This document shows positions 748 to 29,253 of a DNA stretch of 64,000 nt, in pieces. The stretch is from Candidatus Bathyarchaeia archaeon. Lineage in GTDB: Archaea > Thermoproteota > Bathyarchaeia > Hecatellales > Hecatellaceae. The DNA lies in NCBI GenBank assembly GCA_038883335.1, contig JAVZMI010000002.1:9242-73241 (forward strand), written 5' to 3'. Within the stretch, counting starts at the first letter, position 1; every line of letters starts with the position of its first letter. The notes beneath the pieces were generated by a model, which worked only from the letters and a program-made list of their open reading frames with translations, did not search any database and was not told the DNA's origin. The position numbers were made by a program, and so were the translations under genes.

Positions 748-1734
748 ATGGAAACACTTTATCACCCGGAGGCATTAAGTATCGCGGAAGATATTAAAAA
801 CATGAAAATTAGGGGCGCGGGGAGAGTTGCGAGAGCAGCTGTGAAGGCGTTGCTTTTTACAGCGCGCCACTCTAAGGCCACAAACACCGACTCCCTCATA
901 AAAGAACTTGAATCAACCGCGAAAATGCTGATGGAAACCAGGCCCACCGCGGTAAGTCTGCCAAATGGACTCAGATACGTTTTGAAGCGAGTCTCCGACG
1001 CTAAGGGTTACGCGGAGAGTACGGACGCAATTAGAAAGATAACTAGTAACGCTGCTTTACAGTTCATCGCCGAGTCGAAGCGGGCTGTAGAGAGAATCGG
1101 GGAGATCGGAGCTAGAAGAATAGGTAACGGCGATACAATATTGACCCACTGCAACTCTGAGGCCGCAATATCTATAATAGCTACAGCTTGGAGGCAAGGT
1201 AAAGATATACGTGTCTTTGCAACTGAAACTAGACCCAGGTTGCAAGGGAGAACTACCGTGAGAAGATTGGGCAGGGAGGGGATTCCAACCACACTTATAA
1301 TAGACAGTGCTGCCAGACATTTCATGAACAAAGTGGACAAAGTTGTTGTAGGATCTGATGCTGTAGCAGCAAATGGGGCTGTAGTAAACAAGATAGGCAC
1401 TAGCATGATCGCCCTCGCGGCTAAGGAGGCACGGACACCTTTCTACGTAGCCGCTGAGACCTATAAGTTCAGCCCAGCCACCACGCTCGGGGAACTTATT
1501 AGGATAGAGGAGAGGGACGCTTCAGAGGTCATTCCAAAAGGCACCTTGCAAAGTTTAAAGAATGTAACGGTGAGGAACCCTTCCTTCGACGTGACACCCC
1601 CCCAGTACATTGATCTCATAATAACCGAGAAGGGCGTAATACCTCCTCAGTATGCCATATCCGTGATACAACAAGAGTTCGGATGGGCGCTCTTTGAAGA
1701 AGGTGAACGCCCAATAACCCCGGAAGACGAGTAA
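748..1734 (+). CDS. e2b2: ribose-1,5-bisphosphate isomerase (eIF-2B alpha/beta/delta family)
   Basis: 328 aa. ILTHCNSEAA ... TETRPRLQG ... DSAARHFMNKVDKVVVGSDAVAANGAVVNKIGT ... AAETYKF is full-length IF-2B family with the catalytic Cys in THCNS. It sits between AMP phosphorylase and RuBisCO as in the archaeal AMP pathway. Confidence 0.8.
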   Translation: METLYHPEALSIAEDIKNMKIRGAGRVARAAVKALLFTARHSKATNTDSLIKELESTAKMLMETRPTAVSLPNGLRYVLKRVSDAKGYAESTDAIRKITSNAALQFIAESKRAVERIGEIGARRIGNGDTILTHCNSEAAISIIATAWRQGKDIRVFATETRPRLQGRTTVRRLGREGIPTTLIIDSAARHFMNKVDKVVVGSDAVAANGAVVNKIGTSMIALAAKEARTPFYVAAETYKFSPATTLGELIRIEERDASEVIPKGTLQSLKNVTVRNPSFDVTPPQYIDLIITEKGVIPPQYAISVIQQEFGWALFEEGERPITPEDE

Positions 1735-1738
1735 TGAG

Positions 1739-2971
1739 GTGAAACCAGTGGGATACATTGATTTTGTAGATTTGAAGTATATCCCTGCAGCCAGTGATCT
1801 GATATGTAAGTTTTACGTTGAACCTCAAGGATTAAGCCTCGAGGAAGCGGCAGGTGGGGTCGCGGCTGAGAGTTCTGTCGGGACATGGACAGAACTTGGA
1901 ACTATGAGAGAATATGCTTGGAAACTACACGCTACAGTCTTCGAGATCAAAGGCAACCATGTGACGATAGCCTACCCAGCAGAACTTTTCGAGAAAAGTA
2001 ACATGCCTAACATACTTAGCAGTATAGCGGGGAACGTCTTCGGACTTGCCGCCTTAAAGAATCTGAGGCTAGTCGACATTCAGATCCCGAGAGAGCTGGT
2101 TAAGAGCTTTAAAGGGCCAAGATACGGGATTGAAGGAATACGGAGAATCCTTAAAGTGCCTAAGAGACCGCTTGTGGGAACTATTATCAAACCAAAGTTG
2201 GGTTTAAACCCCGGCGACCACGCCGAGGTTGCTTACGAAGCCTGGTCTGGCGGCTGCGACATTGTAAAGGATGATGAGAACTTGGCCAGTCAACGCTTTA
2301 ACAGGTTTGCAACGCGACTGCGTGAGACACTTAGGAGGAGGGATCGTGCTGAGAAGGAGACCGGAGAGAGGAAGATGTACCTTGTCAACATCACAGCAGA
2401 AACTGAGGAGATGCTGAGGAGGGCCCAGCTTGTTAAGGATAGCGGTGGCGAATATGTGATGATAGACATATTGACCTGCGGTTTCGCCAGCGTTCAGACT
2501 CTGAGGGATATGAATCTAGGGCTGGTTCTCCACGGCCACAGGGCGGGGCACGCCGCCTTCACGAGGAACCCAAAGCACGGGATATCGATGAGGGTCATCT
2601 CACGCATTGGAAGAATCATCGGGCTCGATCAGCTCCATGTAGGAGCAGCCGTGGGCAAGATGTCGGAGGAGAGAGATGAAGTTCTTGAGAACGTTCAGGC
2701 GCTAAAGGGGGAGTTATACGGCCTTAAAAGAGTTCTTCCCGTGGCTTCAGGTGGGCTCCACCCCCGCCTCGTCCCCTCCCTCGTGGAGATCTTCGGGAAT
2801 GATGTTGTGATCCAAGCTGGAGGCGGGATCCACGGTCATAAAGATGGAACCTACGCCGGAGCCAGAGCTATGAGACAGGCCATAGATGCTACAGTAGAAG
2901 GGATAACCCTCGCCGAGTATGCAAATAGCCATGGCGAACTGCGGGCGGCGTTGAATACTTGGCCGGCTTGA
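1739..2971 (+). CDS. rbcL: ribulose-bisphosphate carboxylase large subunit, form III
   Basis: 410 aa. The N-terminus YIDFVDLKYIPAASDLICKFYVEP ... AAESSVGTWT and the IKPKLGLNPGDHAEVAYEAWSGGCDIVKDDENL region are RuBisCO large-subunit signatures. GTG start 5 nt after the e2b2 stop suggests translational coupling. Confidence 0.9.
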   Translation: MKPVGYIDFVDLKYIPAASDLICKFYVEPQGLSLEEAAGGVAAESSVGTWTELGTMREYAWKLHATVFEIKGNHVTIAYPAELFEKSNMPNILSSIAGNVFGLAALKNLRLVDIQIPRELVKSFKGPRYGIEGIRRILKVPKRPLVGTIIKPKLGLNPGDHAEVAYEAWSGGCDIVKDDENLASQRFNRFATRLRETLRRRDRAEKETGERKMYLVNITAETEEMLRRAQLVKDSGGEYVMIDILTCGFASVQTLRDMNLGLVLHGHRAGHAAFTRNPKHGISMRVISRIGRIIGLDQLHVGAAVGKMSEERDEVLENVQALKGELYGLKRVLPVASGGLHPRLVPSLVEIFGNDVVIQAGGGIHGHKDGTYAGARAMRQAIDATVEGITLAEYANSHGELRAALNTWPA

Positions 2972-7548: not shown

Positions 7549-8223
7549 GTGGAACTCGTGAGAATATGTGACCGAATATTTTTCTATCCTGGCTCCGAGT
7601 CTGACATCCTAAGCTCCAACACATACTTGATAAACGATAAGGTCTTAGCAGTTGTAGACCCCGGTAGCATAAGCCGGCTGGACACTCTACTCAAACACTT
7701 CAGGGAGGATAGAGTAAACGTTGAAGATCTAGAGCTGATAATCAACACGCACAGCCACTTCGACCACTGCGGAGCGAACTTCCACCTTCAGAGGGCCTCG
7801 AGAGCGAAAATAGCAATGCACGAATTGGAAGAGAAGTTTCTAGCTAATTCGCGGAGTATAGCGCTCAGGTTCGGAGACATGATGCCTACATTCAAGGTTG
7901 ACCGACGCCTTCGGGATGGAGAAAAGCTCGTCACTGGAGACCTAATCTTTGAGGTAGTTCATACCCCAGGCCACACGCCTGGCGGTATTTGCCTCTACGA
8001 ACCAAGCCTCAAGCTCCTTTTCTCAGGCGACACCATATTCCCTTACGGAAATATCGGAAGGACAGACCTCCCGGGAGGAGACCCCGCTCAGCTTGCAAAG
8101 TCGATAAGGCGACTCACCGGGTTAGATGTGAGGATACTTGCCCCAGGTCACATGAATATAGTTACTGAGGCTGTGAATGAGCAGATTGAAGCCTCCTTGA
8201 GAAACGCTGAACTGCTATTATGA
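7549..8223 (+). CDS. metallo-beta-lactamase-fold hydrolase
   Basis: 224 aa. THSHFDHCG (HxHxDH) and HTPGHTPG motifs. Confidence 0.7.
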   Translation: MELVRICDRIFFYPGSESDILSSNTYLINDKVLAVVDPGSISRLDTLLKHFREDRVNVEDLELIINTHSHFDHCGANFHLQRASRAKIAMHELEEKFLANSRSIALRFGDMMPTFKVDRRLRDGEKLVTGDLIFEVVHTPGHTPGGICLYEPSLKLLFSGDTIFPYGNIGRTDLPGGDPAQLAKSIRRLTGLDVRILAPGHMNIVTEAVNEQIEASLRNAELLL

Positions 8224-8302: not shown

Positions 8303-9646
8303 CTAAGGCTCTAGTAGATGTCGTTGAAGTAGCTTCTCCATGTAGCGCGGCACACTAGCAGGCTCAACCACCCCATCCTCTGTTATTATGCCCGAGATCA
8401 GACTAGGTGGGGTTATGTCGAAATACAAATTTCTGACGGTCATACTTGGCGGGAAGCTATCCAGCACATCTGATGGGTCCCTCTCCTCGAGTATAGGTTC
8501 TTCGCCAAGATAGTTTCTAACATCGAACTTGGAGAACTCACAAACCGCATAGAACGGGATACCCTTATCCTTCGCGGCCAACGCAATCAAATAAGTTCCC
8601 ACCTTATTGACTAGTGAGCCATCGGCGAGTACGCTATCCGCACCAACTAACACCATGTCAGCTTCAGTAATGAAGTGGCCAACTGCTGCGTCGGTGATTA
8701 GCGTTACGGGTACCCCTACCGTTGAAAGCTCAGCTGCAACCTCTCTTCCCTCGCAGAGCGGCCTTGACTCTGAAACTACGACTCTCATCCTTCTCCCTTC
8801 CGAGGCTACCTGCTTGAATGTCTCAATAACCATCGAGCTGTTGCTATGCGTTAGCACTGTGTACCCGTCGCCAATATTTCTACACGCTTCCCTCACAGCC
8901 TTCTTCGAAGACAGCTCTAAACCTTTAACCGCCTCCTCGACCTCCCGTGCAACTGAGATTTTTAGTGAAGCCAAACTCGTAGCTTTAAGTCTTAAAATTC
9001 GGGAGCACAGGAGATCTATAATGTTAGCAATTGAACACATGCTGGGTTTAAGGTTTCTAAGCCTCTCAGCTGTCTCCTCGAGGCGCCGCAAACATTCCTC
9101 GGGAGCCCCCAGCTCGCATGCATCCGCAGCTAACCTCAAAGTCTGAGCGGCTTCCACTGCAAGTTGCCGTGCACCCCGCTTTCTATCAGATGCTATCTCC
9201 CAGAGTTTCCTAGCGACATCCGGGCTTGGTGGAAGTCTAGCGTCAAACTTAACCCTCATAAGCGCCTGCCGGAGCATGGGCACAGTTTCGTATAGGTCTA
9301 TCTCCTCCGGTTTTATCCACCGGTATTCCTCGTTCTCCCAGTTTACCGTTATACTTGGCTTGTCAGCCTTGAAGAGATAGGGATACACAACCCATAGAAC
9401 ATTTTTCTCCTTGTCGGGAACTAGCAGGAGCTTACCTTTAACGGCTAGGTGAACTTCCCGAGCGTTGAGACCTACCTCCTCTTGGATCTCTATTAGCGCC
9501 CTGCTCGAAGGGTCTTCGTTCCCCTCAATATAGCCGCTGACCCCGGCCCACTTGCCCTTGAAAGTTCCAACCCTACCGCTCCGTTTGAGAATTAAAATCA
9601 GCCCGTTATATTCGAGGAAAACTGTTACAACTTTTCTCAGCTCCAA
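8303..9646 (-). CDS. fusion protein: N-terminal Nudix hydrolase domain + C-terminal eIF-2B alpha/beta/delta-family domain
   Basis: 447 aa. Nudix box GYIEGNEDPSSRALIEIQEEVGL has I in place of the usual R. The C-terminal domain, GYTVLTHSNSS ... SESRPLCEGRE ... LITDAAVGHFITEADMVLVGADSVLADGSLVNKVGT ... FYAVCEFSKF, is full-length IF-2B family but has Ser where e2b2/MtnA carry the catalytic Cys (THSNS vs THCNS). Confidence 0.75.
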   Translation of the reverse strand: MELRKVVTVFLEYNGLILILKRSGRVGTFKGKWAGVSGYIEGNEDPSSRALIEIQEEVGLNAREVHLAVKGKLLLVPDKEKNVLWVVYPYLFKADKPSITVNWENEEYRWIKPEEIDLYETVPMLRQALMRVKFDARLPPSPDVARKLWEIASDRKRGARQLAVEAAQTLRLAADACELGAPEECLRRLEETAERLRNLKPSMCSIANIIDLLCSRILRLKATSLASLKISVAREVEEAVKGLELSSKKAVREACRNIGDGYTVLTHSNSSMVIETFKQVASEGRRMRVVVSESRPLCEGREVAAELSTVGVPVTLITDAAVGHFITEADMVLVGADSVLADGSLVNKVGTYLIALAAKDKGIPFYAVCEFSKFDVRNYLGEEPILEERDPSDVLDSFPPSMTVRNLYFDITPPSLISGIITEDGVVEPASVPRYMEKLLQRHLLEP

Positions 9647-9778
9647 AGGTCCAACCTCCGATTCAGAGTAACAAGCCTCCTTAAAACCTGAGAATTAGGT
9701 TAAAACGACAACTGAGGAGGCGCGCCTAGGAAGTGCAAAGGGGATACAATAATAACATGAGGATACGTATCGCCTATT

Positions 9779-10598: not shown

Positions 10599-13500
10599 TT
10601 AAGACCTCTCCTTGCCTGGTGCCATGTAGAGATTAACAGTACCAGTCCCTACAGGGATCATTTGACCACATATCACACTCTCGGTTACTCCGGTTAGATT
10701 ATCCTCCAGACCTCTAACGGCTGCAGAGATCAGTGTTGGAACTGTTATCTCAAAGGCAGCTCTCGCTAGGACACTGGCCTTCTCACCGCTCACCCCATGC
10801 CGCCCAATCTGCATAACTTCGCCAAGACAGGTCATCATGTCTGCGACCAGCATAACATGTCTAATGTCAACATCTAACCCTTGTTCACTCAATACGCTCC
10901 TTATCTCTCTTATCAGAGCGTTCCTAGCAGCCTCTATCCCAAGAGTCTCAGCGATCTCGTGTATGCTGTTAGTATTAGTCCTAGTCGGATCGACACCCTC
11001 TACTCTTATTACCTTTGTTAGATTCGAGCCGTCAGTCTTAATTATCCACTCCCCATCTTCCTGAGTGATTAAGGCCCTACTGATGCCTTGCACCCCCTTT
11101 ATGCATAAGGACGGGATTTTCTCAAAGAGCTTAGTTAACTCGCTAGTATCATCAGGTTTTATTTTCAACGAATCCCCATGAGTTGAGATGGAACACTTCA
11201 TAGACTTAAATGCTGACTTGATCTGGTTGAGGTTTACGCCTCCCTCCTTCATTGCCAGCCTATCAAGTTTCACGATTATCGAAGCCTCAGCCTGATCGAG
11301 AAAGATTCCTGAAGACACGTCGCGGAGGGTGGTGTAGACTAGCTTTTGGGCTATAGCAGTTGCCTTCTCCCTATCCTTTCTGAACTCCCCCTGCAAATAA
11401 ACCGTCATGATAGGTGTGGAAGGGATCTTTCGAGCATCTACCAACTCGATGATTCGTGGAAGACCTAGGGTAACGTTCATCTCCTTAACGCCGGCAAAGT
11501 GGAAGGTTCGTAGAGTCATCTGTGTGCCAGGCTCACCTATCGACTGTGCAGCAACCACCCCCACGGATTCTCCAGGTTCAATCTTCGCCATACTATAATC
11601 GCGAACCGTGGTTGAGATAACCTTGTCCACGGCCTCCTTACTAAGCTTCGACCCTGAGAGGTCCTTCCTCAGCTCATTGATAAGTAGGGGGGTTAATTCA
11701 TTTTTAACCTCGTCCAATCTTTCATTAATATAACGCTCAGACGCAGCCATTCCTCCAGAAGTGGAAAGTTTCACCCTCTCGACAAGCCGCTCAATATTGA
11801 CGGCTTTGCCGTGGTCGCTCTTGGCAGGGTCAACTCCGTCCTCTCCATAACGGAATTGGATAATTTGACCGGTAGCCGTTCTCACAGTCTCGTCATGTTC
11901 AACCCTTAAATCTTGGAGGGCATTAACGAGGCGGCGTTGCATATAACCACTCTGCTGAGTTCGAACAGCCGTGTCCACCAAGCCCTCCCTGCCACCGATA
12001 GCGTGGAAGAAGAATTCAGTCGGCGACAAACCGTCTCGGTATGATCTGTAGACGAAGCCGCGGGCTTCGGGGCTAGGGTCGCCGGGTTCGAAGTGGGGCA
12101 AGGCACGATTCCTGTAGCCGCGAATTATCCTCTTCCCTCGAACTGACTGCTGACCTAGGCAGGCCGTCATTTGACCTATATTTAGGCTTGAACCGCGAGC
12201 TCCAGTCCTAGTCATTATAGCCCCGCTATTCTCCATACCAAAGTAATAGTTAGCCTTGGCCCCAGCCTCGTCGCGAGCCTTGGCAAGCTCGTTCATAGCG
12301 TAGATCTCGAACGACTCCTCGATGGAACGGCCAGGCAGCCTCGGTAGAGTTCCATCCTTAAGTGAGGCTGTCAACTTAGTTATGTACTTTTTAGCGTCAG
12401 CTGTTCTCTTCTCTATAGCCGATTTAACCTCCTGTGATATATCCAACTCTTCCAGAGAGTAGGAGAACCCTTTTAGAGATAAGAAATTGTTTACGAGTCT
12501 GCAGAGAGAATTCATAAAGGCTTTGCCTGCTTCAGTTCCATACTCTTTTATTATTCTGTGTAAAATGCTCTCTGACTTTTCAGCCCCTATAGCACTCCTG
12601 TCTATCACGCCGGACAGCAGTTTCCCATTTTTAATAACGACATAAGCATCCTTGTCGCAGTCTTCGTAGAGGCATTTGGGGCAACCAGGGCAGATGTTAG
12701 CTTTCATGACGTAGTCCAGCCCCTTCGGTAGTAGGAGACTGAATAAGTCCTTGCCAGACCATAACGGTTCTTTACCTTTTACAGTTGGCTCTGGAATTTC
12801 ACCTTCATAACCAATCGAGACCAGCAGATTGCACAGCTCATCCCTACGGAGGAACGTAGTCTTTCTAGTTAGGAGGTATGATGCTGTGATGAAGTCCCGA
12901 ATAGCGCCAATAAGAGGCCCACCATATCTCGGGGAGAGAATTTGATTTTGAACCTGCATTAAGACCCTAGCCTCTGTCACTGCCTCCTCCGTTTGTGGAA
13001 CATGGAGGTTCATTTCATCCCCATCGAAATCAGCGTTGTAGGGAGGACATACACAGAGGTGTAGTCTAAAAGTCTTATATGGTAGAACTTTGACGAAGTG
13101 TGCCATCATAGACATTCTATGAAGGGAAGGCTGCCTATTGAAGACCACCACATCGCCGTCCTTCAGGTGGCGTTCTACGATAAAGTGAGGCTGGAGGCTT
13201 TCGGCGACTTTACTTCTATCGACTACGAATTCAAGTCTGATACGCTTGCCGTCAGGCCTAACCACGTAGAGAGCCCCAGGGTAGGTTGATGGCCCATTCT
13301 TTACAAGTTGCCGGAGCTCTTCGATGTTCCACTCGGTTACAACTTCCGGATAGGTTAGCCGCATCGCTATCTCCAATGGTACCCCTACCTCATCGATGCT
13401 GAGGTTTGGGTCAGGGGAGATTACAGTCCTAGCTGAAAAGTCTACTCGTTTGCCGGAGAGGTTACTTCTGAATCTACCCTCCTTGCCCTTCAACCTCTGC

Positions 13501-14423
13501 GAGAGAGTCCTTAAAGCCCTACCAGACCTGTGCCTAGCTGGAGGAATCCCAGAAGTCTCATTGTCGAAGAAGGTTGTAACATGGTATTGGAGGAGGTCTG
13601 AAAGTTCGCGAAAGATGAGAGGAGGAGCGCCGCCTTCAGCCGCATACTCTTTGAGGCGATTATTTATTCGTATTATATCGACCAGTTTATGTGTTAGATC
13701 GTCCTCAGACCTTATGCCTGACTCGAGCATTATCGAGGGTCTAACGGCAACGGGCGGGACGGGTAAAACTTGTAGAACCATCCATTCTGGTCGAGCGGAT
13801 TGAGGAGAGAAACCTAAGACCGCAAGATCCTCGCTCTTTATTAGTTCTAATCTTCCCCTTATGATGGACGGTTCGAGGGGGCGTGTCCCTTCATCCGTGA
13901 TTTCGAAGAAGTTTGTGGGCTTACTAAATTCGATATGGTTATGTTTCTTCATACAATGTGGACACCTAATATTCTTCCTCGCTTCATGCCTAACCTCCTC
14001 GTATATGTTCACAGGATCGATGCCGACTTCATCTCTGGCTTTTGCTATTCTAGCCTTATACTCCTCAACTTTTTCATCTGAGAGGAGGATTCTACCACAC
14101 TCGCTACAGAATAGGTTTAAAAGTTCATGTATAATCTTTGTAAAACCTGTGTGAATAACTGGCGTAACGAGTTCTATATGACCGAAGTGACCAGGACATT
14201 TCGCCGGGGGATTCCCGCAGGTTTTACACCGTGTCCTAGGCTCCAATGTACCCATGCGTTCATCCATCAGCCCCATCGGTATCGGCGCCCCATCCTCGTC
14301 GTAGGTGTCAGCCTCTTGCAATTCGACGACGGATAATTTCCTGATCTCCTGAGGGGATTGGACGCCGAACTTGATCTTCTTGATAGTTTTTGTTACCTCT
14401 TCTACTACTTCCAGCGACATCAT
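10599..14423 (-). CDS. rpoA: DNA-directed RNA polymerase largest subunit, unsplit (A' and A'' in a single 1274-aa ORF)
   Basis: Zinc motifs CKTCG, the NADFDGDEMN catalytic loop and the bridge helix GGREGLVDTAVRTQQSGYMQRRL are all present. The A'' trigger-loop region AAQSIGEPGTQMTLRTFHFAG follows in the same frame with no stop. Confidence 0.95.
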   Translation of the reverse strand: MMSLEVVEEVTKTIKKIKFGVQSPQEIRKLSVVELQEADTYDEDGAPIPMGLMDERMGTLEPRTRCKTCGNPPAKCPGHFGHIELVTPVIHTGFTKIIHELLNLFCSECGRILLSDEKVEEYKARIAKARDEVGIDPVNIYEEVRHEARKNIRCPHCMKKHNHIEFSKPTNFFEITDEGTRPLEPSIIRGRLELIKSEDLAVLGFSPQSARPEWMVLQVLPVPPVAVRPSIMLESGIRSEDDLTHKLVDIIRINNRLKEYAAEGGAPPLIFRELSDLLQYHVTTFFDNETSGIPPARHRSGRALRTLSQRLKGKEGRFRSNLSGKRVDFSARTVISPDPNLSIDEVGVPLEIAMRLTYPEVVTEWNIEELRQLVKNGPSTYPGALYVVRPDGKRIRLEFVVDRSKVAESLQPHFIVERHLKDGDVVVFNRQPSLHRMSMMAHFVKVLPYKTFRLHLCVCPPYNADFDGDEMNLHVPQTEEAVTEARVLMQVQNQILSPRYGGPLIGAIRDFITASYLLTRKTTFLRRDELCNLLVSIGYEGEIPEPTVKGKEPLWSGKDLFSLLLPKGLDYVMKANICPGCPKCLYEDCDKDAYVVIKNGKLLSGVIDRSAIGAEKSESILHRIIKEYGTEAGKAFMNSLCRLVNNFLSLKGFSYSLEELDISQEVKSAIEKRTADAKKYITKLTASLKDGTLPRLPGRSIEESFEIYAMNELAKARDEAGAKANYYFGMENSGAIMTRTGARGSSLNIGQMTACLGQQSVRGKRIIRGYRNRALPHFEPGDPSPEARGFVYRSYRDGLSPTEFFFHAIGGREGLVDTAVRTQQSGYMQRRLVNALQDLRVEHDETVRTATGQIIQFRYGEDGVDPAKSDHGKAVNIERLVERVKLSTSGGMAASERYINERLDEVKNELTPLLINELRKDLSGSKLSKEAVDKVISTTVRDYSMAKIEPGESVGVVAAQSIGEPGTQMTLRTFHFAGVKEMNVTLGLPRIIELVDARKIPSTPIMTVYLQGEFRKDREKATAIAQKLVYTTLRDVSSGIFLDQAEASIIVKLDRLAMKEGGVNLNQIKSAFKSMKCSISTHGDSLKIKPDDTSELTKLFEKIPSLCIKGVQGISRALITQEDGEWIIKTDGSNLTKVIRVEGVDPTRTNTNSIHEIAETLGIEAARNALIREIRSVLSEQGLDVDIRHVMLVADMMTCLGEVMQIGRHGVSGEKASVLARAAFEITVPTLISAAVRGLEDNLTGVTESVICGQMIPVGTGTVNLYMAPGKERS

Positions 14424-17400
14424 GTTCTGTCCTCCAGAATTAGTCTAGGAGCAAGGCATAGACTCATCAGTTCTTGGAGAAGAAGTTTGAAGGCGTATGA
14501 AACTACCACAGGCGACACAATAGCGTCATCGCCACAAAGGTTGCAGACGTATCTCCTCTGCATCTGGTCGTAGTAAGCGATAAAGCCACAATGCTCACAG
14601 ACATACATCACACACCTATCAGACTCGTCTAATAGCCTGTTCTTTAGGAGAACTGCCGCCCCATGACCTATTAAACAGTCTCTCTCCATCTCCCCAAAAC
14701 GGAGACCACCACCTCTAGCTCTCCCTTCAGTAGGCTGCCTTGTTAACATTTGAACTTGACCTCTAGACCGGGCGTGCATCTTGTCAGCAACCATGTGATG
14801 GAGCTTCTGGTAATAGATCACACCCATGAAGACGTCGGCAACGAGTTTCTCACCTGTCATGCCATTATACAGAGTTTCTCTTCCACTGTGGTGAAAACCT
14901 AACTCCTTTAAAGCTCTCCTCAACTCCTCAGGTTTAGTGCCTACGAAAGGGGTACCATCGATTGTGTGCCCACAAACTGAGGCAACCTTGCCTGCCAGAG
15001 TCTCTACAAGTTGCCCTACAGTCATTCTAGATGGGAAAGCGTGAGGATTTATGATTATATCCGGGACTATCCCGTCCTCCGTGAATGGCATATCTTCTTG
15101 AGGAACCAACATCCCTATGACGCCTTTCTGCCCGTGGCGGGAGGCAAACTTGTCGCCGAGCTCTGCAGGCCGAGTGTCTCTAACCTTGACTTTTACAATT
15201 CTAGTACCTTGCGATGTATCAGTCAAAAAGACTGTGTCCACAACTCCCTTTTCGGATGGTCTCATGGTAATCGAGGTATCCCTCCTCGTAGGCCCTTTGA
15301 CTTCAAACTCCTTGTATTCTTCAAGGAAACGTGGCGGACTTGTCCTGCCCACTAAAACGTCAGAGCCAGAAACCTCGGCTTCAACACCAACTATCCCGTC
15401 GGCTTCCAAGAGGCGATAGCTCTGTTCACCCCTAAAGCCTCTAGCCCCAGCCTCAGGAATCTCGAAGCGGTCTTTCCCTCCACCGAGGTATTGCCTTGAC
15501 TCAGCTTCATATACCCTATAGAAAATCGACCTGCCCAACCCCCGCTCTACTGATGACTTGTTGAAGACCAGAGCATCTTCCATATTATATCCTTCGAAGG
15601 ATAGAACCGCTATAACGTAGTTCTGGCCGAGCGGTCTTTCATCATAACCCACCGTGAGCATAGTCTTAGTGGTGACTAGAGGTGTTTGAGGATAACTCAG
15701 AATGTACGACCTCGAGTCAGCTCTCAGATGGAAGTTAGTGGAGTAGATCCCTAAAGCCTGCTTTACCATTGCCGCCTCGTATGAGTTTCTCGGGGATTGG
15801 TTATGTTCAGGGTACGGTATGAGTGAGGCGCAGATACCTAGGATGGTGTAGGGTGCTATCTCAAGGTGTGTATGTTTCGGTGTGAGGTCACTTTCGAATA
15901 TTGCAATGTAAGCATTCTCCTCTTCGTCAGCGTCTAAAAACTCAATGATGCCATTCTTGATCAGATACTCCCACGAAATCTCTCCACTCTTAAGTTTCTC
16001 TATATGCTCAGAAGTAAGGAGAGGGCGGCCATCCCTGCAGACAATTAAGGGCCGCCGAACTCTTCCGGCATCATAGGTTACGTGAACCTCTCTGAGGATG
16101 ACCCTCGTAGACCTCTCTTCATAAAAGGCGATGTTGATCTCATGGCTGATCTCACCCTTCCTCCTCAGCTCTCTAATTCTCGACACAAGTCCAAGAGGGT
16201 CGCTACAATACCCTATAACCCCATCAAGGAATACTTTAGCTCCGTTAACTTTGAGCTCTCTGCTAGCTTTTTCCAATTCTACAACGCCAAGGTTCAGTAG
16301 AAGCGCCCTGACTTTTTCTCGGTCTATACCTACCGATATAGACGACGAGAGAGCGAGATTCTTTACGAGACCACAATTCGAGCCTTCGGGTGTTTCATTT
16401 GGGCATAGCCGCCCCCAATGGGTGGAGTGGAGGTCTCTAGCTTCAAAGTTGGGCTGACTTCGGCTAAGGGGAGATTGAAGACGGCGAAGGTGGCTTAGAG
16501 AGGCCACGTAGTTTGTCCTATCAAGTAGCTGAGTAACACCAACCTTACCCCGCCCCCAGTTACCGGTGGCTAGGGCATGCTGAATCCTCTCGGTGATAAT
16601 ACCAGGTCTGACTGCAGCGTTAATTGCACCTATGGCGCCAACTCGCTTCAGACTGGTTCGCTCCAGCTGGTATTTCATATCACGGCAAAGGTTGCGAAAC
16701 ATTGTTCTGAATAGATCTGCCAATAGAACTCCGGCCAATTTCACCCGCTTATTAGCATAATGATCTTTGTCGTCAGATGCTCTGATGCCGAGTTTGAGTT
16801 CTATCATCCGATTAGCTATCTCACCTAGGAAATAGGCCTTCTCCTTCCGTTTGTCTGGCGTTCTACCTATGTGTGGTAGAAAGTTCCTGTCTATAACTCC
16901 CTCAGCCTTCTTGAGTCTGTACTCTTCAATCTGACCGAAGGCAACCCTGTTACCAATGTATAGGATCGCATCTGAGGTTTTGAGGACCCCCTCAGACTTC
17001 TCGAATGAAGGCTCCAGTTGATCCTGTATCTCCTCCAGCGGCGAGACAACCTCAGCTATCTCTCTATCTGCCTCAACCCCTAAAGCCTTCATCAAGATTA
17101 CAAATGGTATGTCCGCAACAACTCCAGGGATGGAGACATTTATAGACCCGTCAGATTTCATCTTGACTTCTATGCGAGCTCTGAACCCGACGGTTGTTGA
17201 GAAGACTTTTGCTTTGTAGGCTACACCGACCCCCGACTCGTCATAGTCTACTAGAATACGGTTAGCGGCGAGATCTTCGAGACCTACCATTACTCTTTCT
17301 GAGCCGTTTATGATGAAGTAGCCACCCGGGTCTCTTGGATCCTCACCCATCCGAATTAGTTCATCTTCACTCACCCCTGAAAGGTTGCATTTTTTTGATT

Positions 17401-17770
17401 TTACCATTATGGGTATGTCGCCTATGTAGATGGGTTCGAGTGGGGATATCCTCTTTCCATCCCTCTCGATACACATTTCTAGGTAGAGAGGGGCTGCATA
17501 AGTGATATTGCGAAGCCTAGCCTCCATGGGGAGGATGCCATGGGCGGACCCGTCTACCTCCACAACCTTGGGCTTCTCAAGATTAACCTTCCCAAACCTG
17601 ATTCTGTAACGGTTCTCAGCTGCTATATCTATACCGCCTACCTCATCAACTATAGCTTGCAGACCATTCTCTATGAAGTCATCGTAGGATTTCAGATGTT
17701 GCTTTACCAAACCTTCCTCTTTGAGAAAACGCTCCACGAGGCTCCAATACTGTTCGTGTGACGCGGCCAT
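14420..17770 (-). CDS. rpoB: DNA-directed RNA polymerase subunit B (unsplit)
   Basis: 1116 aa. GEMERDCLIGHGAAVLL, a C-terminal Zn ribbon and a 4-nt overlap with rpoA. Confidence 0.95.
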   Translation of the reverse strand: MAASHEQYWSLVERFLKEEGLVKQHLKSYDDFIENGLQAIVDEVGGIDIAAENRYRIRFGKVNLEKPKVVEVDGSAHGILPMEARLRNITYAAPLYLEMCIERDGKRISPLEPIYIGDIPIMVKSKKCNLSGVSEDELIRMGEDPRDPGGYFIINGSERVMVGLEDLAANRILVDYDESGVGVAYKAKVFSTTVGFRARIEVKMKSDGSINVSIPGVVADIPFVILMKALGVEADREIAEVVSPLEEIQDQLEPSFEKSEGVLKTSDAILYIGNRVAFGQIEEYRLKKAEGVIDRNFLPHIGRTPDKRKEKAYFLGEIANRMIELKLGIRASDDKDHYANKRVKLAGVLLADLFRTMFRNLCRDMKYQLERTSLKRVGAIGAINAAVRPGIITERIQHALATGNWGRGKVGVTQLLDRTNYVASLSHLRRLQSPLSRSQPNFEARDLHSTHWGRLCPNETPEGSNCGLVKNLALSSSISVGIDREKVRALLLNLGVVELEKASRELKVNGAKVFLDGVIGYCSDPLGLVSRIRELRRKGEISHEINIAFYEERSTRVILREVHVTYDAGRVRRPLIVCRDGRPLLTSEHIEKLKSGEISWEYLIKNGIIEFLDADEEENAYIAIFESDLTPKHTHLEIAPYTILGICASLIPYPEHNQSPRNSYEAAMVKQALGIYSTNFHLRADSRSYILSYPQTPLVTTKTMLTVGYDERPLGQNYVIAVLSFEGYNMEDALVFNKSSVERGLGRSIFYRVYEAESRQYLGGGKDRFEIPEAGARGFRGEQSYRLLEADGIVGVEAEVSGSDVLVGRTSPPRFLEEYKEFEVKGPTRRDTSITMRPSEKGVVDTVFLTDTSQGTRIVKVKVRDTRPAELGDKFASRHGQKGVIGMLVPQEDMPFTEDGIVPDIIINPHAFPSRMTVGQLVETLAGKVASVCGHTIDGTPFVGTKPEELRRALKELGFHHSGRETLYNGMTGEKLVADVFMGVIYYQKLHHMVADKMHARSRGQVQMLTRQPTEGRARGGGLRFGEMERDCLIGHGAAVLLKNRLLDESDRCVMYVCEHCGFIAYYDQMQRRYVCNLCGDDAIVSPVVVSYAFKLLLQELMSLCLAPRLILEDRT

Positions 17771-24911: not shown

Positions 24912-26735
24912 TTGTGTGGGATCTTCGGCTGCGTGCAGAGATCTGATCAGGTAGCCAAAGTCATCTACCAAGCTTTAAAAAGGTTGGAGTATAGGGGATA
25001 CGACTCAGCTGGGATAGCAACCCTCCACGAAGGAGTTATATTCGTGAAAAAAGATCAGGGAAAACTTGATCACATCCATGCGCGACTAAACCTTGAAGAT
25101 CTTCCCGGCAGGGTCGGAATTGGACATACACGGTGGGCAACCCATGGTGCACCGCTACAAGTTAACGCTCACCCACACATTGATTGTTCACATCGAATCG
25201 CCGCGGTCCATAATGGAATTATTGAGAATTTTGTAGAGCTGAAGAAAGAGCTGGAAGGATCCGGGCACATCTTCGTATCGAAGACCGACAGCGAAGTTAT
25301 CCCCCACCTTATAGAGGACAAAATAAAGGCTGGGTTAAAGTTCCCAGTGGCTGTGAGGGAAGCTGCAAAAAGGCTGGAGGGTTCATATTCAGCTGCAGTC
25401 ATCTATGAGGGAGAGCAGGATGGGATTGTCTGCCTGAGGGAGAAGAACCCTCTGCTAATCGGCGTAGGTTCAGAAGGGCTTTACGTGGCTTCAGATATAC
25501 CAGCCATCCTTCCATTCACCAATAGGATAGTTGACGTAATGGATGGCGAATTAGTAGTAATTTCTGATACTGGTTACGAGATACGAAAAATAGAAGATTG
25601 GAGTATCGTTGAGAGGAAGCCAAAAATTATTGACTGGAGCATTGAGACAGCTCAGAAGGGAGGCTTCCCCCATTACATGCTCAAGGAGATACATGAACAG
25701 GCTCGGTCGCTCAGAAACGCTCTGTTACTTCAAGATAGATACCTAGATCTGATAGCTACTTTTCTAGACCGCTCCAAACAGATATTCCTTTTAGCCTCAG
25801 GCACCTCATACCATGCTTGTCTTGCAGCTTCATATATGTTCAGCAAGTTTGCATGCGTCGCTGCCTACCCAGTCGTCGGATCTGAGCTGATCCAGCAGTA
25901 TGGCGATTCAATCCACATAGATAGTACCATACTCGCCGTCAGCCAATCCGGAGAGACGGCTGATATCCTCCAAGCCGCCGAGTACGCAAGGCTAAGAGCA
26001 GCGACAGTGCTGGGGCTGACTAACGTTATCGGGTCAACTTTGACTAGGATCTCCCGTGCATATATCTGCCAACAGTCAGGACCAGAGATCGGAGTGGCTG
26101 CTACCAAGACCTTCACAGCTCAACTTATTGTCTTGGCGCAGTTGGCCTTGCGGCTTGCAAAACTCAGAGGAAAGATTTCTCAAGATGAGATTGATGAGTT
26201 CAACGTTAGACTTAAGGAAACACCTAACCTTGTCGAGCTTGTTATCAAAAGGGAGGAGGGTAAGATAAAGCTCCTCGCGAAGAAATATCGAGAGTCGCCT
26301 ATTTTCTATTTCCTAGGTAGGGGAATTAGTAGTGCAACAGCGCTGGAAGGACGATTGAAACTCCTCGAAGTTGCCCGAGTTCCAGCCCTCTCTTACCCAG
26401 CTGGGGAGAGCAAACATGGCCCTATTAGTCTTGTCGAACCTGGTTTCCCCATAATATTCATTGTGCCTAGGGATGAAACGCGAAAGATGGCGCTAAGCAA
26501 CATGATGGAGATGAAGGCTAGGGGAGGGGTTATTATACCTGTTGCAGAGGAGGGCGACGAAGAAGTGTTAGGGTATGGTGAAGACCATATAGAGGTCCCT
26601 AAGGGCGCTCCAGAAATCCTCTCACCTATCCTCTACGTGGTGCCTTTGCAACTTTTCGCATACTATATGGCAGTGGAGAGGGGTTACGACCCTGACAAAC
26701 CATGTAATCTAGCAAAATGTGTCACAGTACTTTGA
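24912..26735 (+). CDS. glmS: glutamine--fructose-6-phosphate aminotransferase
   Basis: 607 aa. (M)CGIFGCV N-terminal nucleophile Cys, two SIS domains. TTG start preceded by GGAGGAGG. Confidence 0.9.
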   Translation: MCGIFGCVQRSDQVAKVIYQALKRLEYRGYDSAGIATLHEGVIFVKKDQGKLDHIHARLNLEDLPGRVGIGHTRWATHGAPLQVNAHPHIDCSHRIAAVHNGIIENFVELKKELEGSGHIFVSKTDSEVIPHLIEDKIKAGLKFPVAVREAAKRLEGSYSAAVIYEGEQDGIVCLREKNPLLIGVGSEGLYVASDIPAILPFTNRIVDVMDGELVVISDTGYEIRKIEDWSIVERKPKIIDWSIETAQKGGFPHYMLKEIHEQARSLRNALLLQDRYLDLIATFLDRSKQIFLLASGTSYHACLAASYMFSKFACVAAYPVVGSELIQQYGDSIHIDSTILAVSQSGETADILQAAEYARLRAATVLGLTNVIGSTLTRISRAYICQQSGPEIGVAATKTFTAQLIVLAQLALRLAKLRGKISQDEIDEFNVRLKETPNLVELVIKREEGKIKLLAKKYRESPIFYFLGRGISSATALEGRLKLLEVARVPALSYPAGESKHGPISLVEPGFPIIFIVPRDETRKMALSNMMEMKARGGVIIPVAEEGDEEVLGYGEDHIEVPKGAPEILSPILYVVPLQLFAYYMAVERGYDPDKPCNLAKCVTVL

Positions 26736-26833
26736 AATAGAGCAACTCCCGAGCCACTCCAAGATATCCTTATATAATAAAGTCGTAAATAAATAGCCAC
26801 TTCCATCCGTGAATATAAAAAAAAGTGATTGAA

Positions 26834-27259
26834 ATGCCGGGCGAGTTTGCTGGTAGGAAGCTCAGACTCACTAGACAGTCCTTCAGGTGGAGTGACCGTT
26901 ACTACAAACGGAGAATGCTAAAGCTGGATGTAAAGTCAGACCCCCTCCAAAAGGCGCCGATGGGACGGGGAATAGTCCTTGAGAAAGTAGGCATTGAAAG
27001 TCGGCAGCCTAACAGTGCCGTCAGGAAGTGTGTAAGGGTTCAGCTGATAAAGAACGGCAAGGTAGTAACAGCTTTTCTGCCAGGTGACGGCGCACTCAAC
27101 TTTGTGGAAGAACATGATGAAGTTTTAATCTGCGGCATCGGAGGACCTCGTGGTAGGGCTTACGGAGACCTCCCCGGCGTTCGATACCAGACCATCGCCA
27201 TAAATGGTGTATCCTTAACAGAGTTGCTGTTAGGGAAGAAGCAGAAGCCTGCACGCTGA
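26834..27259 (+). CDS. rps12: ribosomal protein S12 (uS12)
   Basis: [12 protein letters not shown] ... [47 protein letters not shown] ... ICGIGG is near-identical in pattern to archaeal S12. The ORF track starts 9 nt earlier at a GTG. Confidence 0.9.
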
Positions 27260-27871
27260 AAGGCGATGGTGGCGCTCTCTTTACAGCTTCTACCGGCGAA
27301 TGGACATACCTTTGTCCGTTTATTTTTAGACTCTTATTCCGCCACGACTACGCGAGTTTGAAACAGTGATAAATTAAGGCAATCTTATTTAAGAGTGGTA
27401 AGACTTGTCTTCGCACGCAATATACTTTAGTGAGTATTGTTGCGTGTTCGAGACGGAGCTGTGTATTGCTTGTTGTCTCTCTCTTTGGTTGGCTCGAAGA
27501 GCCTTGTTCTCCCACCCATAATTGTCATCTTGACACTGTTTTCTTTCACCAGCAACTTCACGTAGCGGTTTACAGTGTACCAGAGGGGATTTGTTAAGAC
27601 TCCGATGTCGGATACTGTGAGAAGTCTAGTTGCGTCCTCTGAGAGAGCCGAGAAGACTGCCTAATTTCGTCTTGGTAAATATTCAACGTGGGTTACAGAT
27701 TTTGTAGGGTTTCGACATTTTAACATTTCCAATGTCGATCGATTTTCTTAGCACCATGTTAAATATGGAAATTCAACACTCAATCAGTAAGTAAACCCAT
27801 GGGCTAGATTATACTCAAAAAGGAAATCGAGCCCAACCCATGTGGCATAAAAATTACCTACTTGACCTCCA

Positions 27872-28321
27872 ATGTATAGGAAAACCTGCAAGTCTGAGGT
27901 TGGAATGCTAATTAAATTTTTAAATTGCCTAAGAAAGACCTTAACACCCTCGGTCGCTGATGTTTTTATTTATTACTCGGCGAAAGAGTGTGGAATCTAC
28001 TTGTACGGCTGGTTGAACGCTAACTATGAGCCTAAAAATGTTGACGAGCTTCTGTCATATCTCCAACGGTTCATGAAAGAAATGAAGCTAGGATTACTAA
28101 ACATATGCGCGTTCAACCCTGAGGATGGAAAGATTGTTTTAAGAGTCGAGAGAGGCTTCGAGGTGGAAACTGGTGTAGGCGGTGAGACATGTGTTTTTAT
28201 GCGAGGAATGCTCGAAGGTCTGATCGAGCAGATCATAGTCAGAAACATTACATTGGAGGAAACAGCGTGTGCCTCAGCTGGCTCGCCTTACTGCGAATTT
28301 AGCGCAACCATTAAGCGGTGA
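27872..28321 (+). CDS. V4R-domain protein
   Basis: 149 aa. C-terminal GETCVFMRGMLEGLIEQ ... EETACASAGSPYCEFS matches the conserved Cys/Gly pattern of the V4R (vinyl-4-reductase) small-molecule-binding domain. Confidence 0.55.
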   Translation: MYRKTCKSEVGMLIKFLNCLRKTLTPSVADVFIYYSAKECGIYLYGWLNANYEPKNVDELLSYLQRFMKEMKLGLLNICAFNPEDGKIVLRVERGFEVETGVGGETCVFMRGMLEGLIEQIIVRNITLEETACASAGSPYCEFSATIKR

Positions 28322-28598
28322 AGAGTAGATTTAGTGAACAAACGTGGGGTCCCTAGTCGAGAAAGACTTCACCCCTGGTATTACTTTAAATTCTTTAAAA
28401 ATCAACAAATACCGTTCTGTCAGTCTTAAAAGTCTGACCAGAGGAGACATTTTTACCTTTAGTCTTCTATTGGGATATTGGTGTATACGCCCCCAATTTT
28501 TACTCGTTCTATAGAAGCCTTCCATAGCTGCGATGCTTAGCTCCGCAGCCTCTCAGAAGATCGCTATTTTCACATTCATCTTGCCAATAGAATAGTGA

Positions 28599-28631
28599 GG
28601 CGAATAATCTTTTAACCAGAGGTTATTCGCC
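28599..28631 (-). terminator. hairpin immediately 3' of the S7 stop codon (9-bp stem GGCGAATAA / TTATTCGCC, 15-nt loop)
   Basis: Perfect inverted repeat at 28599-28607 and 28623-28631, 1 nt from the S7 stop. The role of hairpins in archaeal termination is uncertain. Confidence 0.3.
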
Positions 28632-28632
28632 T

Positions 28633-29253
28633 TTACCTGGAGGAGAGCGCAATCCTCTCTTGTTCATCTCTCTTGGCCACGGCATAGCTCTTGCTATCTC
28701 TCTCAGCTGCCAATAGTATCTCATCAGCAAGGCTTTCATCTATTGTCTTAATGTTGCCGAAAGCATTTTTCCTAGCCCCATCGGCCAAGAACCTCAAAGC
28801 TAAGTCAAGCCTGCGGAGAGGCGCCACATCCACGGCGACGTGATATACAATTCCTCCATAACTAATTCGGGTAGTATCTTCGCAGGGCGCCGAGTTCTCT
28901 ATAGCGCGAATTAGAACCTCTATCGGATTTCTCCCCGACTTGAGGTGAATTATCTCAAAAGCGTTCTTTACTATCTGTAAAGCACGGGCTTTCTTGCCAC
29001 CATTTTTTCCAGGCCTCATCAATTGGTTTGCAAGTCTCTCAACTATCGAGATCTCAGACTTGAGAAAACGTTGATGTTCATGCCTGCCCCCTGAGTGGGC
29101 TGTAAGAGTATCCTTTACTGAAATGTATCGTGCGAGCCCTGGATCCTTTACCTCTAAACCTTCGAAACCCCACTTGCCAAAGAGCTTTATGGGCTCAGAC
29201 CCAACCTTCTCAGCCACACAATCACCAGCAGTTTTGCAGTGTATACTTCCCAA
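28633..29253 (-). CDS. rps7: ribosomal protein S7 (uS7)
   Basis: 206 aa. KLFGKWGFEGLEVKDPGLARYISV ... is typical archaeal S7. It is encoded on the strand opposite to S12 and EF-1alpha. Confidence 0.9.
   Translation of the reverse strand: MGSIHCKTAGDCVAEKVGSEPIKLFGKWGFEGLEVKDPGLARYISVKDTLTAHSGGRHEHQRFLKSEISIVERLANQLMRPGKNGGKKARALQIVKNAFEIIHLKSGRNPIEVLIRAIENSAPCEDTTRISYGGIVYHVAVDVAPLRRLDLALRFLADGARKNAFGNIKTIDESLADEILLAAERDSKSYAVAKRDEQERIALSSR

Follow-up and report, generated by a model that had tools for sequence, protein, structure and literature searches.

In the ribose-1,5-bisphosphate isomerase (R15Pi) of P. horikoshii (Ph), exchange of the catalytic Cys135 for Ser yields a protein that is catalytically dead and yet still binds ribose 1,5-bisphosphate (R15P, Kd 13.8 µM) and ribulose 1,5-bisphosphate (RuBP, 7.5 µM), while exchange for Ala leads to the loss of substrate binding (PMC5789824). 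A homologous pocket in eIF2Bα of C. thermophilum binds guanosine, adenosine and cytidine monophosphate (GMP, 2.9 µM; AMP, 10 µM; CMP, 65 µM) and ribose 5-phosphate (R5P, 24 µM), with no binding of RuBP, ATP, GTP or NADP+ (PMC4787765). Archaeal aIF2B proteins of the PH0440 type are cited in later papers as binding their cognate aIF2α in vitro (Dev 2009). Here, we consider a gene that joins a domain of this family to a Nudix domain, found at 8303..9646 on the minus strand of a 64,000-nucleotide stretch, hereafter the window, from a Candidatus Bathyarchaeia archaeon (GenBank assembly GCA_038883335.1, contig JAVZMI010000002.1, positions 9,242 to 73,241 of the forward strand).

Within the IF-2B family, the C-terminal domain of the encoded protein falls on the Cys-less side, that of aIF2B and eIF2Bα, and it is linked to its Nudix partner, by fusion or by adjacency, in archaea and bacteria. 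For the function of the protein, we see an even chance that a small, active Nudix pyrophosphohydrolase is coupled in it to an aIF2B-type domain with a ligand of the R5P or nucleoside monophosphate (NMP) type. Such a protein would serve nucleotide housekeeping or salvage and would not be an isomerase of R15P or of 5-methylthioribose 1-phosphate (MTR-1-P).

Domain anatomy and the ligand pocket

The open reading frame (ORF), as read from the ORF list and the Pfam matches, encodes 447 amino acids (aa) between a TTG start and a TAG stop. No other start codon occurs among the first 50 codons, 15 codons upstream of the TTG there is an in-frame stop, and the resulting N-terminus, MELRKVVTVFL, agrees with the family consensus MxxxxVVTxFL. 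All parts of the gene are given below on the minus strand. Residues 1-135 (9242..9646) form a small MutT/NudI-like Nudix domain, matched by Pfam PF00293 over aa 5-120 (E 5.4e-9, 36.6 bits against a gathering cut-off of 21.1). Residues 150-447 (8306..9199) form an aIF2B-type IF-2B domain, which consists of a helix bundle at its N-terminal end together with a Rossmann-like domain and is complete as judged by its PF01008 match (aa 156-429, profile positions 2-280 of 280, E 2e-73). The linker of aa 136-149 (9200..9241) lies between the two Pfam matches, at a dip in the predicted local distance difference test (pLDDT) of the AlphaFold2 model. The block of aa 131-140 has a pLDDT of 78, and only the C-terminal block is lower (73), while the whole-chain model has a mean pLDDT of 94.9 and a predicted TM-score (pTM) of 0.90. 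These profile searches bear out the two-domain anatomy proposed in the initial annotation, a model-made note based on the sequence alone. The same note had considered that two separate genes might have been joined by a frameshift. This we reject: the ORF is continuous, and as the same architecture is found in at least 75 homologues and the whole chain is modelled with the above pTM, the fusion should be regarded as genuine.

To describe the pocket, the ligand-binding and catalytic residues of Ph R15Pi (PMC5789824) were mapped on the window protein and on 120 relatives, these being the best of 221 found at E ≤ 1e-10 in a search of 5.8 billion proteins; 75 of the 120 are full-length Nudix+IF-2B proteins and 45 are stand-alone IF-2B proteins. 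The catalytic Cys135 corresponds to Ser268, within a THSNS motif (aa 266-270, 8837..8851) that aligns to THCHS of Ph R15Pi (5yfs/5yfj), just as the initial annotation had read it. The codon, AGC, is one base away from the Cys codon TGC. However, Ser is present in 117 of the 120 relatives, and because it is conserved throughout the family, we discarded a sequencing error as its origin. Since the C135S mutant of R15Pi binds its ligands and the C135A mutant does not, the conserved Ser fits ligand binding rather than Cys-dependent isomerase chemistry.

The remaining pocket residues divide into those that are kept and those that are not. The two ligands of the 5-phosphate, Ser137 and Lys240, correspond to Ser270 and Lys373, both of which are invariant in all 120 relatives, as is Asp337 of a GADS motif (8636..8638), the counterpart of the catalytic and ligand-binding Asp204 (Ph)/Asp202. 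Lys215, a ligand of both the 1-phosphate and the sugar, corresponds to Lys348 (119 of 120 relatives), and the sugar ligand Asn214 to Asn347 (Asn or His in the relatives). In eIF2Bα, mutating the equivalents of Asp337 and Asn347 abolishes the binding of AMP, GMP and R5P (PMC4787765). At the 1-phosphate, Gln166 is replaced by Glu299 (8750..8752), with Glu also in 119 of the 120 relatives and in PH0440; Arg22 is retained in the window protein as Arg157, where the relatives mostly have His; and Arg65 corresponds to Lys200, a position held by Arg, Gln or Lys among the relatives. The AMP-activator residues of R15Pi (Arg124, Arg190, Lys194, Arg229 and Trp231) correspond to Asn257, Gly323, Thr327, Gly362 and Pro364, and these positions are unconserved in the family. 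The same pocket pattern holds, in an hmmalign alignment, for 80 genome loci. These are the best of 389 stretches confirmed when one genome per GTDB species was scanned with two Nudix-domain peptide patterns, and 'the 80 loci' below are always these. In one subfamily, where the two modules are encoded by separate convergent genes, Glu299 is replaced by Thr or Ser in most loci, and Lys348 by Gly in most.

At the level of overall structure, Foldseek aligns the C-terminal domain equally well to the closed, ligand-bound Ph R15Pi (TM 0.89, rmsd 1.8-1.9 Å) and to PH0440 (1vb5; TM 0.89). When the PDB was searched by sequence, the best match of the fusion protein was the C135S mutant 5yfs, ranking above the wild type, with 160 bits for Ph R15Pi. 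With the window's own canonical R15Pi (748-1734), the domain shares 37% identity.

In the Nudix module, the box GYIEGNEDPSSRALIEIQEEVGL (aa 38-60, 9467..9535; given as its translation) was compared with GX5EX7REUXEEXGU. G, E7, E16, U, E19, E20, G and U are all present, and position 15 is Ile in place of Arg, which agrees with the earlier observation that the usual Arg is missing. This position is variable across the family (R, K, L, T, W or I), while the Glu residues of the box are conserved. The AlphaFold2 model has a helix at 46-58 that spans the box, with β-strands on both sides. W33, G38, E53, E57, E104 and W110 are invariant in family alignments of the module, all except two of the Nudix modules in the alignment of the 80 loci have E53, E56, E57 and E104, and the module ends in a conserved, family-specific ETVP..L..RV motif. 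The nearest solved structures are NudI, the MutT-related 3grn, the pyrophosphohydrolase 3ees (which we take to be Bdellovibrio RppH), NudG and Ap4A hydrolases. With E. coli/Klebsiella NudI and small MutT-type Nudix proteins, the N-terminal domain shares its size of about 135 aa and the Nudix-box helix, although the similarity to NudI is low and the window protein differs in the Ile of its box and in its ETVP motif. Naming a substrate from these structures was abandoned, since even the best solved matches reach only E ~1e-10 (6e-11 to 5e-10 for NudI and the others).

Family placement and distribution

A neighbour-joining (NJ) tree was calculated from 107 sequences, among them PDB sequences of R15Pi, MtnA, PH0440 and eIF2Bα, over 304 columns, using Kimura distances and 200 bootstraps. 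The fused proteins, the stand-alone Ser clade, the split-gene forms, PH0440 and human eIF2Bα are separated from R15Pi and MtnA with 97.5% bootstrap support, a value that should be read with the small number of outgroups in mind (3 R15Pi, 5 MtnA and 1 eIF2Bα). The MtnA and R15Pi clades are themselves supported at 100% and 99.5%, respectively. Fused and stand-alone Ser-type forms are intermixed, and Haloferacales form a separate sub-clade. The initial annotation had leaned towards the isomerases and had named clustering with the aIF2B regulatory subunits, combined with a lack of isomerase active-site geometry, as the outcome that would speak against them; as to the clustering, the first half of this, the domain does group with PH0440 and eIF2Bα and not with R15Pi or MtnA. 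Its description of the domain as a second, diverged paralogue holds insofar as the domain is distinct from the canonical e2b2 copy, with the identity given above, but it understates the distance, as we are dealing with an old, separate and widespread clade and not with a recent duplicate of e2b2.

None of the NCBIfam equivalog models for R15Pi, MtnA, aIF-2Bα and aIF-2Bδ was passed by the fusion protein or by its stand-alone Ser-type relatives, and assignment to an equivalog was therefore rejected. The fusion protein scores 198 bits against a cut-off of 314.1 for R15Pi (TIGR00511), 141.7 against 279 and 168.3 against 271 for the MtnA models TIGR00512 and NF004326, where it has Ser at the position of Cys160 (B. 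subtilis), and 156.3 against 339 for aIF-2B alpha (PRK08335), a model for which the stand-alone Ser-clade relatives (128-172 bits) are also below the cut-off. The broad subfamily model TIGR00524 ('eIF-2B_rel') is just passed, by 3.5 bits (189.4 against 185.85). An identical protein is found at NCBI, from a Candidatus Bathyarchaeia metagenome-assembled genome (MAG), under the name 'S-methyl-5-thioribose-1-phosphate isomerase'. This name is probably a misannotation, given the missing catalytic Cys and the failed MtnA equivalogs, and its source is most likely TIGR00524.

The described relatives differ in how far they resemble the window protein. PH0440 carries the same pocket signature (THSFS, ESSPDYEG, GAD, NKAGT and ETYKF), but it is a stand-alone protein of 276 aa that lacks both the Nudix domain and the C-terminal helix. 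R15Pi (TK0185, PH0208 and the window copy) has the fold in common, is the best overall match in sequence and structure, and keeps the ligands of the 5-phosphate and the ribose as well as the Asp; it differs in having Cys for Ser and Gln166 for Glu, in possessing the AMP-activator site, in belonging to the other clade and in having no Nudix domain. Human eIF2Bα falls on the same side of the tree and likewise has a Cys-less pocket with the ligands of 5-phosphate and ribose. However, its motifs THAYS, ESQPDLSG and GAEG place Ala, Ser and Glu where the fusion family has Ser, Glu and Asp, and it is part of a decameric guanine nucleotide exchange factor (GEF) complex that is absent from prokaryotes.

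Judged by its sequence, the fusion protein is an orthologue-level member of the widespread and already catalogued 'NUDIX hydrolase/eIF-2B domain protein' family, of which HVO_1934 of Haloferax volcanii is the type member and the one that has been studied, so that the window gene is neither a lineage-specific oddity nor a categorical novelty. Two Haloferax proteins of this type (410-413 aa) have the same domain order, fall in the same length class and, being distant in sequence, are 33-34% identical to it over 95-96% of the query (E ~1e-47), and the Haloferax loci encode the Nudix Glu set and the Ser/Ser/Glu/Asp/Asn/Lys/Lys pocket of the window protein. Haloferacales differ in their genomic context and in having His at position 157, where the window protein has Arg. 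Further sources of the relatives are Bathyarchaeia, Nitrososphaerales, 'Methanobacteriota', Poribacteria, Desulfuromonas, Natronomonas and green algae. The archaeal loci belong to Bathyarchaeia, Hecatella, Thaumarchaeota and Haloferacales, and the bacterial ones to Dehalococcoidia, Desulfomonilia, Brocadiaceae, Planctomycetes, Gammaproteobacteria/Chromatiaceae, Spirochaetota, Armatimonadetes and others. The gammaproteobacterial/Chromatiaceae loci lie on contigs of up to 2.6 Mb, and the flanks checked in three bacterial loci (L007, L083 and L092) are of bacterial type, with a histidine kinase, a DegP-like protease, Tex, UvrD and a lipid A acyltransferase. For the survey of the fusion that had been proposed at the outset, the result is at least 75 full-length homologues and 42 fused loci.

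Two observations on the sources may be added. The green algae Micractinium and Tetradesmus have Nudix+IF-2B proteins of 535 and 753 aa with TTSLS at the position of the Cys motif. Three soil MAG contigs labelled Acidiferrales, Acidoferrum and Methylomirabilota (L023, L026 and L027) have the gene order of Bathyarchaeia contigs, which suggests mis-binned archaeal contigs or recent transfer.

Coupling, proposed function and rival explanations

Both modules were found in each of the 80 loci: as one ORF in 42, as adjacent genes on the same strand in 11, as convergent genes within 600 bp in 25 and farther apart in 2. It should be noted that the ranking of loci favours those with an IF-2B gene, and that these counts are hence not unbiased frequencies; moreover, some of the 11 same-strand pairs may be frameshifted fusions. 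In the split forms, the Nudix protein shares 44-52% identity, and also the ETVP motif, with the Nudix domain of the window protein. In Dehalococcoidia, Thermodesulfovibrionales and Calditrichales (L037-L080), the Nudix gene is part of a minus-strand cluster that converges on a stand-alone Ser-type IF-2B gene. In L038 (5956-10131), the order within this cluster is a metallo-β-lactamase-fold (MBL) gene, a radical-SAM-like gene, CinA-C/PncC (PF02464) and Nudix. In the Dehalococcoidia-type loci, RNase PH and an aldehyde dehydrogenase are found on the other side of the IF-2B gene.

When the Nudix domain alone was compared with 1.84 billion representatives, 2068 matches were obtained at E ≤ 1e-3, 800 of them at E ≤ 1e-10. 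Of the best 150, which were classified, 38 are Nudix+IF-2B proteins, 62 consist of the Nudix domain by itself and 32 have a different domain at the N-terminus. Pfam analysis of 49 members with another partner or none in place of IF-2B gave AcnX swivel (8), CinA-C/PncC (7), α/β-hydrolase families (3), HAD (2), TudS (1) and DUF6390 (1). In the CinA-C(PncC)-, TudS-, HAD- and AcnX-swivel-Nudix fusions, the Nudix part is 40-52% identical to that of the window protein over its full length, and it is the partner domain that differs. Several of these partner families act on 5'-phosphomonoesters: PncC on nicotinamide mononucleotide (NMN), TudS on 4-thio-UMP, and HAD phosphatases on phosphomonoesters generally. 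This fits a Nudix module that yields a monophosphate product which is then handled by the partner. The subfamily appears unusually promiscuous, and a triple-Nudix protein was also found (fusions among P0142, P0143, P0145, P0149, P0163, P0167, P0202 and P0121).

The reading to which we give an even chance can be put as follows; in it, we infer that the Nudix domain is active, what its partner binds and in which direction the two are coupled. One polypeptide would hold two functionally coupled modules. As all metal-binding and catalytic Glu residues are kept, the Nudix module most likely still cleaves a nucleoside-diphosphate-linked compound, such as an NTP, NAD(H), an NDP-X or similar, and cleavage would release a 5'-phosphomonoester product, namely NMP, NMN or R5P. 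The site of the 5-phosphate (Ser270 and Lys373), the ribose ligands (Asp337, Asn347 and Lys348) and the closed-pocket fold are kept while the Gln at the 1-phosphate is replaced by Glu, and the pocket of the second module is accordingly predicted to bind a ribose-5-phosphate moiety that has no 1-phosphate, of the NMP, NMN or R5P type. This ligand could be what the Nudix module releases or else the nucleotide half of what it cleaves, and its binding would serve either to control the Nudix module allosterically or to allow a second step other than isomerisation. Overall, the protein would act in nucleotide housekeeping or salvage, and would neither feed RuBisCO nor take part in canonical translation initiation.

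Several points weigh against this reading and should be considered when referring to it. The pocket is not uniform, as Glu299 and Lys348 are lost in the convergent split-gene subfamily. The near-invariant Ser, Glu, Asp and Lys would be equally in keeping with a binding site and with a genuine active site. The substrate class of the Nudix module cannot be read from the sequence with the PDB matches at hand. The tree is an NJ tree only, with few outgroups. In H. volcanii, HVO_1934 can be deleted, alone or together with HVO_2706, and no phenotype was found under 12 conditions (PMC3828320). Finally, the in vitro binding of aIF2α by PH0440-type proteins, as far as it is cited from Dev 2009, leaves room for a translation-related role in archaea.

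As its own alternative, the initial annotation had offered a non-catalytic, eIF2Bα-like sensor of sugar phosphates. This comes closer to the evidence than its isomerase proposal, although a near-invariant Ser/Glu/Asp/Lys pocket could also carry out some other catalysis. We therefore considered a new bifunctional enzyme, an explanation that is unlikely in our judgement but deserves attention. Here, the IF-2B domain of the Ser/Glu type would use Glu299 and/or Asp337 in place of the Cys to act on what the Nudix module releases, for instance in an aldose-ketose isomerisation of R5P or an N-glycosidic cleavage of NMP, and the whole would be a two-step converter of nucleotides to pentose phosphates. 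Ser268, Ser270, Glu299, Asp337, Lys348 and Lys373 hardly vary among archaea, bacteria and algae, Glu299 is located exactly at the 1-phosphate/C1 region of the R15Pi substrate, and coupling by fusion and adjacency is typical of consecutive pathway steps. In addition, the other partners of the Nudix subfamily belong to enzyme families (PncC, TudS and HAD), and some neighbourhoods are catabolic for nucleobases or nucleotides, with an SsnA-like gene upstream in Bathyarchaeia and a Nuc_deoxyrib_tr gene in L003. However, catalysis in the Cys-less branch has no precedent, eIF2Bα using a similar pocket purely for binding, the split-gene subfamily has lost two of the residues in question, deletion of HVO_1934 has no growth phenotype, and the chemistry as proposed is conjectural. 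It is similarly improbable, though again worth keeping in mind, that the Ser/Glu-type IF-2B proteins as a whole, including the archaeal 'aIF2B' and its bacterial relatives, are an undiscovered enzyme and not a sensor, in which Glu299 would serve as base (or acid) in place of the Cys and which would convert an R5P- or NMP-type product of its dedicated Nudix partner.

A role as an archaeal translation-factor-like regulator appears more doubtful. The C-terminal domain would then be a true aIF2B that binds aIF2α, RNA polymerase (RNAP) or the ribosome, with the Nudix domain as an accessory, and the position of the gene beside rpoB-rpoA-L30e-nusA would reflect that role. The grouping with PH0440 and eIF2Bα and the aIF2α binding attributed to PH0440-type proteins (Dev 2009, as cited) both speak for it, as do the position of the gene directly after nusA and the pull-downs with HVO_1934, which was co-isolated with RpoB2 as bait (PMC8576121). 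The fusion family and the stand-alone Ser-type IF-2B proteins are, however, common in bacteria, which have no a/eIF2, and aIF2α binding is thus argued not to be the general function. The same pull-downs gave only one or two partners for HVO_1934 and no stable complex with other aIF2B-like proteins, its deletion is free of a phenotype, and the authors themselves doubt a role as initiation factor (PMC8576121, PMC3828320). As to position, NusA, L30e and RNAP genes are absent near the gene in the 80 loci and in the 62%-identical relative, and in the window the 132-nt gap after nusA and the gene's own Shine-Dalgarno-like motif leave room for what may be separate transcription.

The route that the initial annotation had favoured is, in our opinion, very improbable. 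In this route, the Nudix domain makes R15P or R5P from phosphoribosyl pyrophosphate (PRPP) or ADP-ribose, and the IF-2B domain isomerises it to a ribulose phosphate for type III RuBisCO. It draws on a canonical R15Pi and a RuBisCO III located 5.3-7.6 kb away in the window, on the high overall similarity to R15Pi (the 160 bits and the TM of 0.89 to the closed form), and on the window protein's Arg157, the Arg22 equivalent that most relatives have lost, with Lys200 for Arg65. Genome papers also propose a Nudix PRPP-to-R15P route in RuBisCO-bearing Thaumarchaeota (PMC7300363). Nonetheless, the C135S exchange inactivates R15Pi (PMC5789824), Gln166 is Glu in 119 of the 120 relatives, no AMP-activator site is present, the protein stays below the equivalog cut-offs for R15Pi and MtnA (198 against 314 and 142 against 279), and in the tree the domain is placed opposite the two isomerase clades. 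A canonical R15Pi is already encoded in the genome, RuBisCO and Cys-type R15Pi genes are missing from the vicinity of the gene in all 80 loci, the family occurs commonly in bacteria without the AMP/RuBisCO pathway, and the Nudix domain is closer to the NudI/MutT type than to ADP-ribose pyrophosphatases.

Least probable of all is an RNA 5'-end enzyme, in which an RppH/NudC-like Nudix domain would act on 5'-triphosphate or NAD-capped RNA, with recognition of the 5'-nucleotide or of a partner protein left to the aIF2B-like domain. In its favour, the nearest solved Nudix structures include the Bdellovibrio pyrophosphohydrolase 3ees and Ap4A hydrolases, Dehalococcoidia-type loci have RNase PH as a conserved neighbour, and the window gene stands beside transcription genes. 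Against it, the Nudix matches are weak and lack specificity (E 1e-9 to 1e-10), the protein has no RNA-binding domain, the RNase PH and RNAP contexts are each confined to one lineage, and the other Nudix fusion partners indicate small-molecule metabolism.

The gene bears on the role of the Cys-less archaeal 'aIF2B' proteins and on the origin of the eIF2B regulatory subunits from sugar-phosphate enzymes, a question that Dev 2009, Kuhle 2015 and Schramm 2021 are said to have addressed. What the comparison adds to it is a Ser/Glu signature in common with PH0440, a wide occurrence in bacteria, three kinds of genomic architecture and the variety of partners of this Nudix subfamily. That this Cys-less domain type is linked to a dedicated Nudix protein in archaea and bacteria, as a fusion, a same-strand pair or a convergent pair, points to a nucleotide-metabolic origin and role. 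If the Ser/Glu-type IF-2B is indeed an enzyme, the pair would be a new two-step route of nucleotide recycling, and it could be the metabolic ancestor whose NMP/sugar-phosphate pocket the eIF2B regulatory subunits inherited. For metabolic reconstructions of Bathyarchaeia, the fusion should not be counted as a second R15P or MTR-1-P isomerase, nor as a PRPP-to-RuBP shunt.

Genomic surroundings in the window and in relatives

On the minus strand of the window, the order is rpoB, rpoA, L30e, nusA and then the fusion gene. rpoB (14420-17770, minus strand) is unsplit and encodes 1116 aa, and rpoA (10599-14423, minus strand) is a single ORF of 1274 aa in which A' and A'' are apparently unsplit, as judged by its length and its NADFDGDEMN motif. 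The 132-nt gap between nusA and the fusion gene contains GGAGG (9655..9659, minus strand), read from the sequence 8 nt upstream of the TTG as a putative Shine-Dalgarno-like motif. A block of GlmS, S12 (26825-27259), a probable S7 (27872-28321) and EF-1α (29404-30696) is located on the plus strand at 24912-30696, about 17 kb from the fusion gene and the RNAP operon. The earlier remark that the gene takes the slot after nusA is thereby upheld, with S12 found 17 kb off on the opposite strand; in this genome, S12 and S7 do not continue from nusA as they usually do.

The canonical Cys-type R15Pi, which had been recognised before, is confirmed at 748..1734 (plus strand) by its THCNS motif and its TIGR00511 score (420.5 bits against a cut-off of 314.1). 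The type III RuBisCO (1739-2971, plus strand) begins 4 bp downstream, a spacing that suggests an operon. Among the larger window ORFs that were annotated, no AMP phosphorylase was seen. A small MBL gene of the YcbL/glyoxalase-II-like type (7549..8223, plus strand; Pfam Lactamase_B, best PDB match 2xf4) converges on the fusion gene. Its product shares 37-41% identity with the MBL of the Dehalococcoidia-type cluster (L038, 9469-10131) and 39% with an MBL located 4.6 kb from the fusion in Hecatella (L010, 741-1379). By these identities, it may be a recurrent functional associate of the fusion or a coincidence within a very common family, and the association should be regarded as weak.

In the 80 loci, no homologue of NusA, L30e, Nre or RuBisCO was found near the gene, and the IF-2B-family genes there are all of the Ser type. 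In the closest relative (62% identity), the gene is adjoined by a cation ATPase and not by the RNAP operon. Conserved linkage to the RNAP operon, nusA and S12, and equally to RuBisCO or a Cys-type R15Pi, was rejected on these grounds. A universal conserved neighbour was sought across the loci and none was found; synteny is lineage-specific, and Haloferacales have a context of their own.

In one group of Bathyarchaeia (L014-L033 and L073), the order is a MocA-like gene, a dihydropyrimidinase-like gene, an SsnA-like aminohydrolase, the fusion 27 bp downstream of it, an unknown protein of 127 aa, MFS and HAD. In two further loci, L005 and L001 (relatives P0011 and P0013), the fusion is found among IMPDH, a PALP enzyme and an OTCase-like gene, followed by HAD, with a carbamate-kinase-like gene in L001 as well. 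In L003, a GDPD+Nuc_deoxyrib_tr gene lies 19 bp upstream of the fusion. Such neighbours, while not universal, hint at nucleotide or nucleobase metabolism, and the gene set of this Bathyarchaeia group and of L001 and L005 presumably resembles the ygeW-ssnA purine-catabolism region of E. coli. Beside the stand-alone Ser-type IF-2B genes of Bathyarchaeia (L090, L091 and L093, 5001-5939), there is a divergent AP_endonuc_2 gene, which encodes a xylose-isomerase-like TIM barrel, and a gene with a CxxCxxCC domain lies downstream of IF-2B, a pattern that is kept across two protein clusters.

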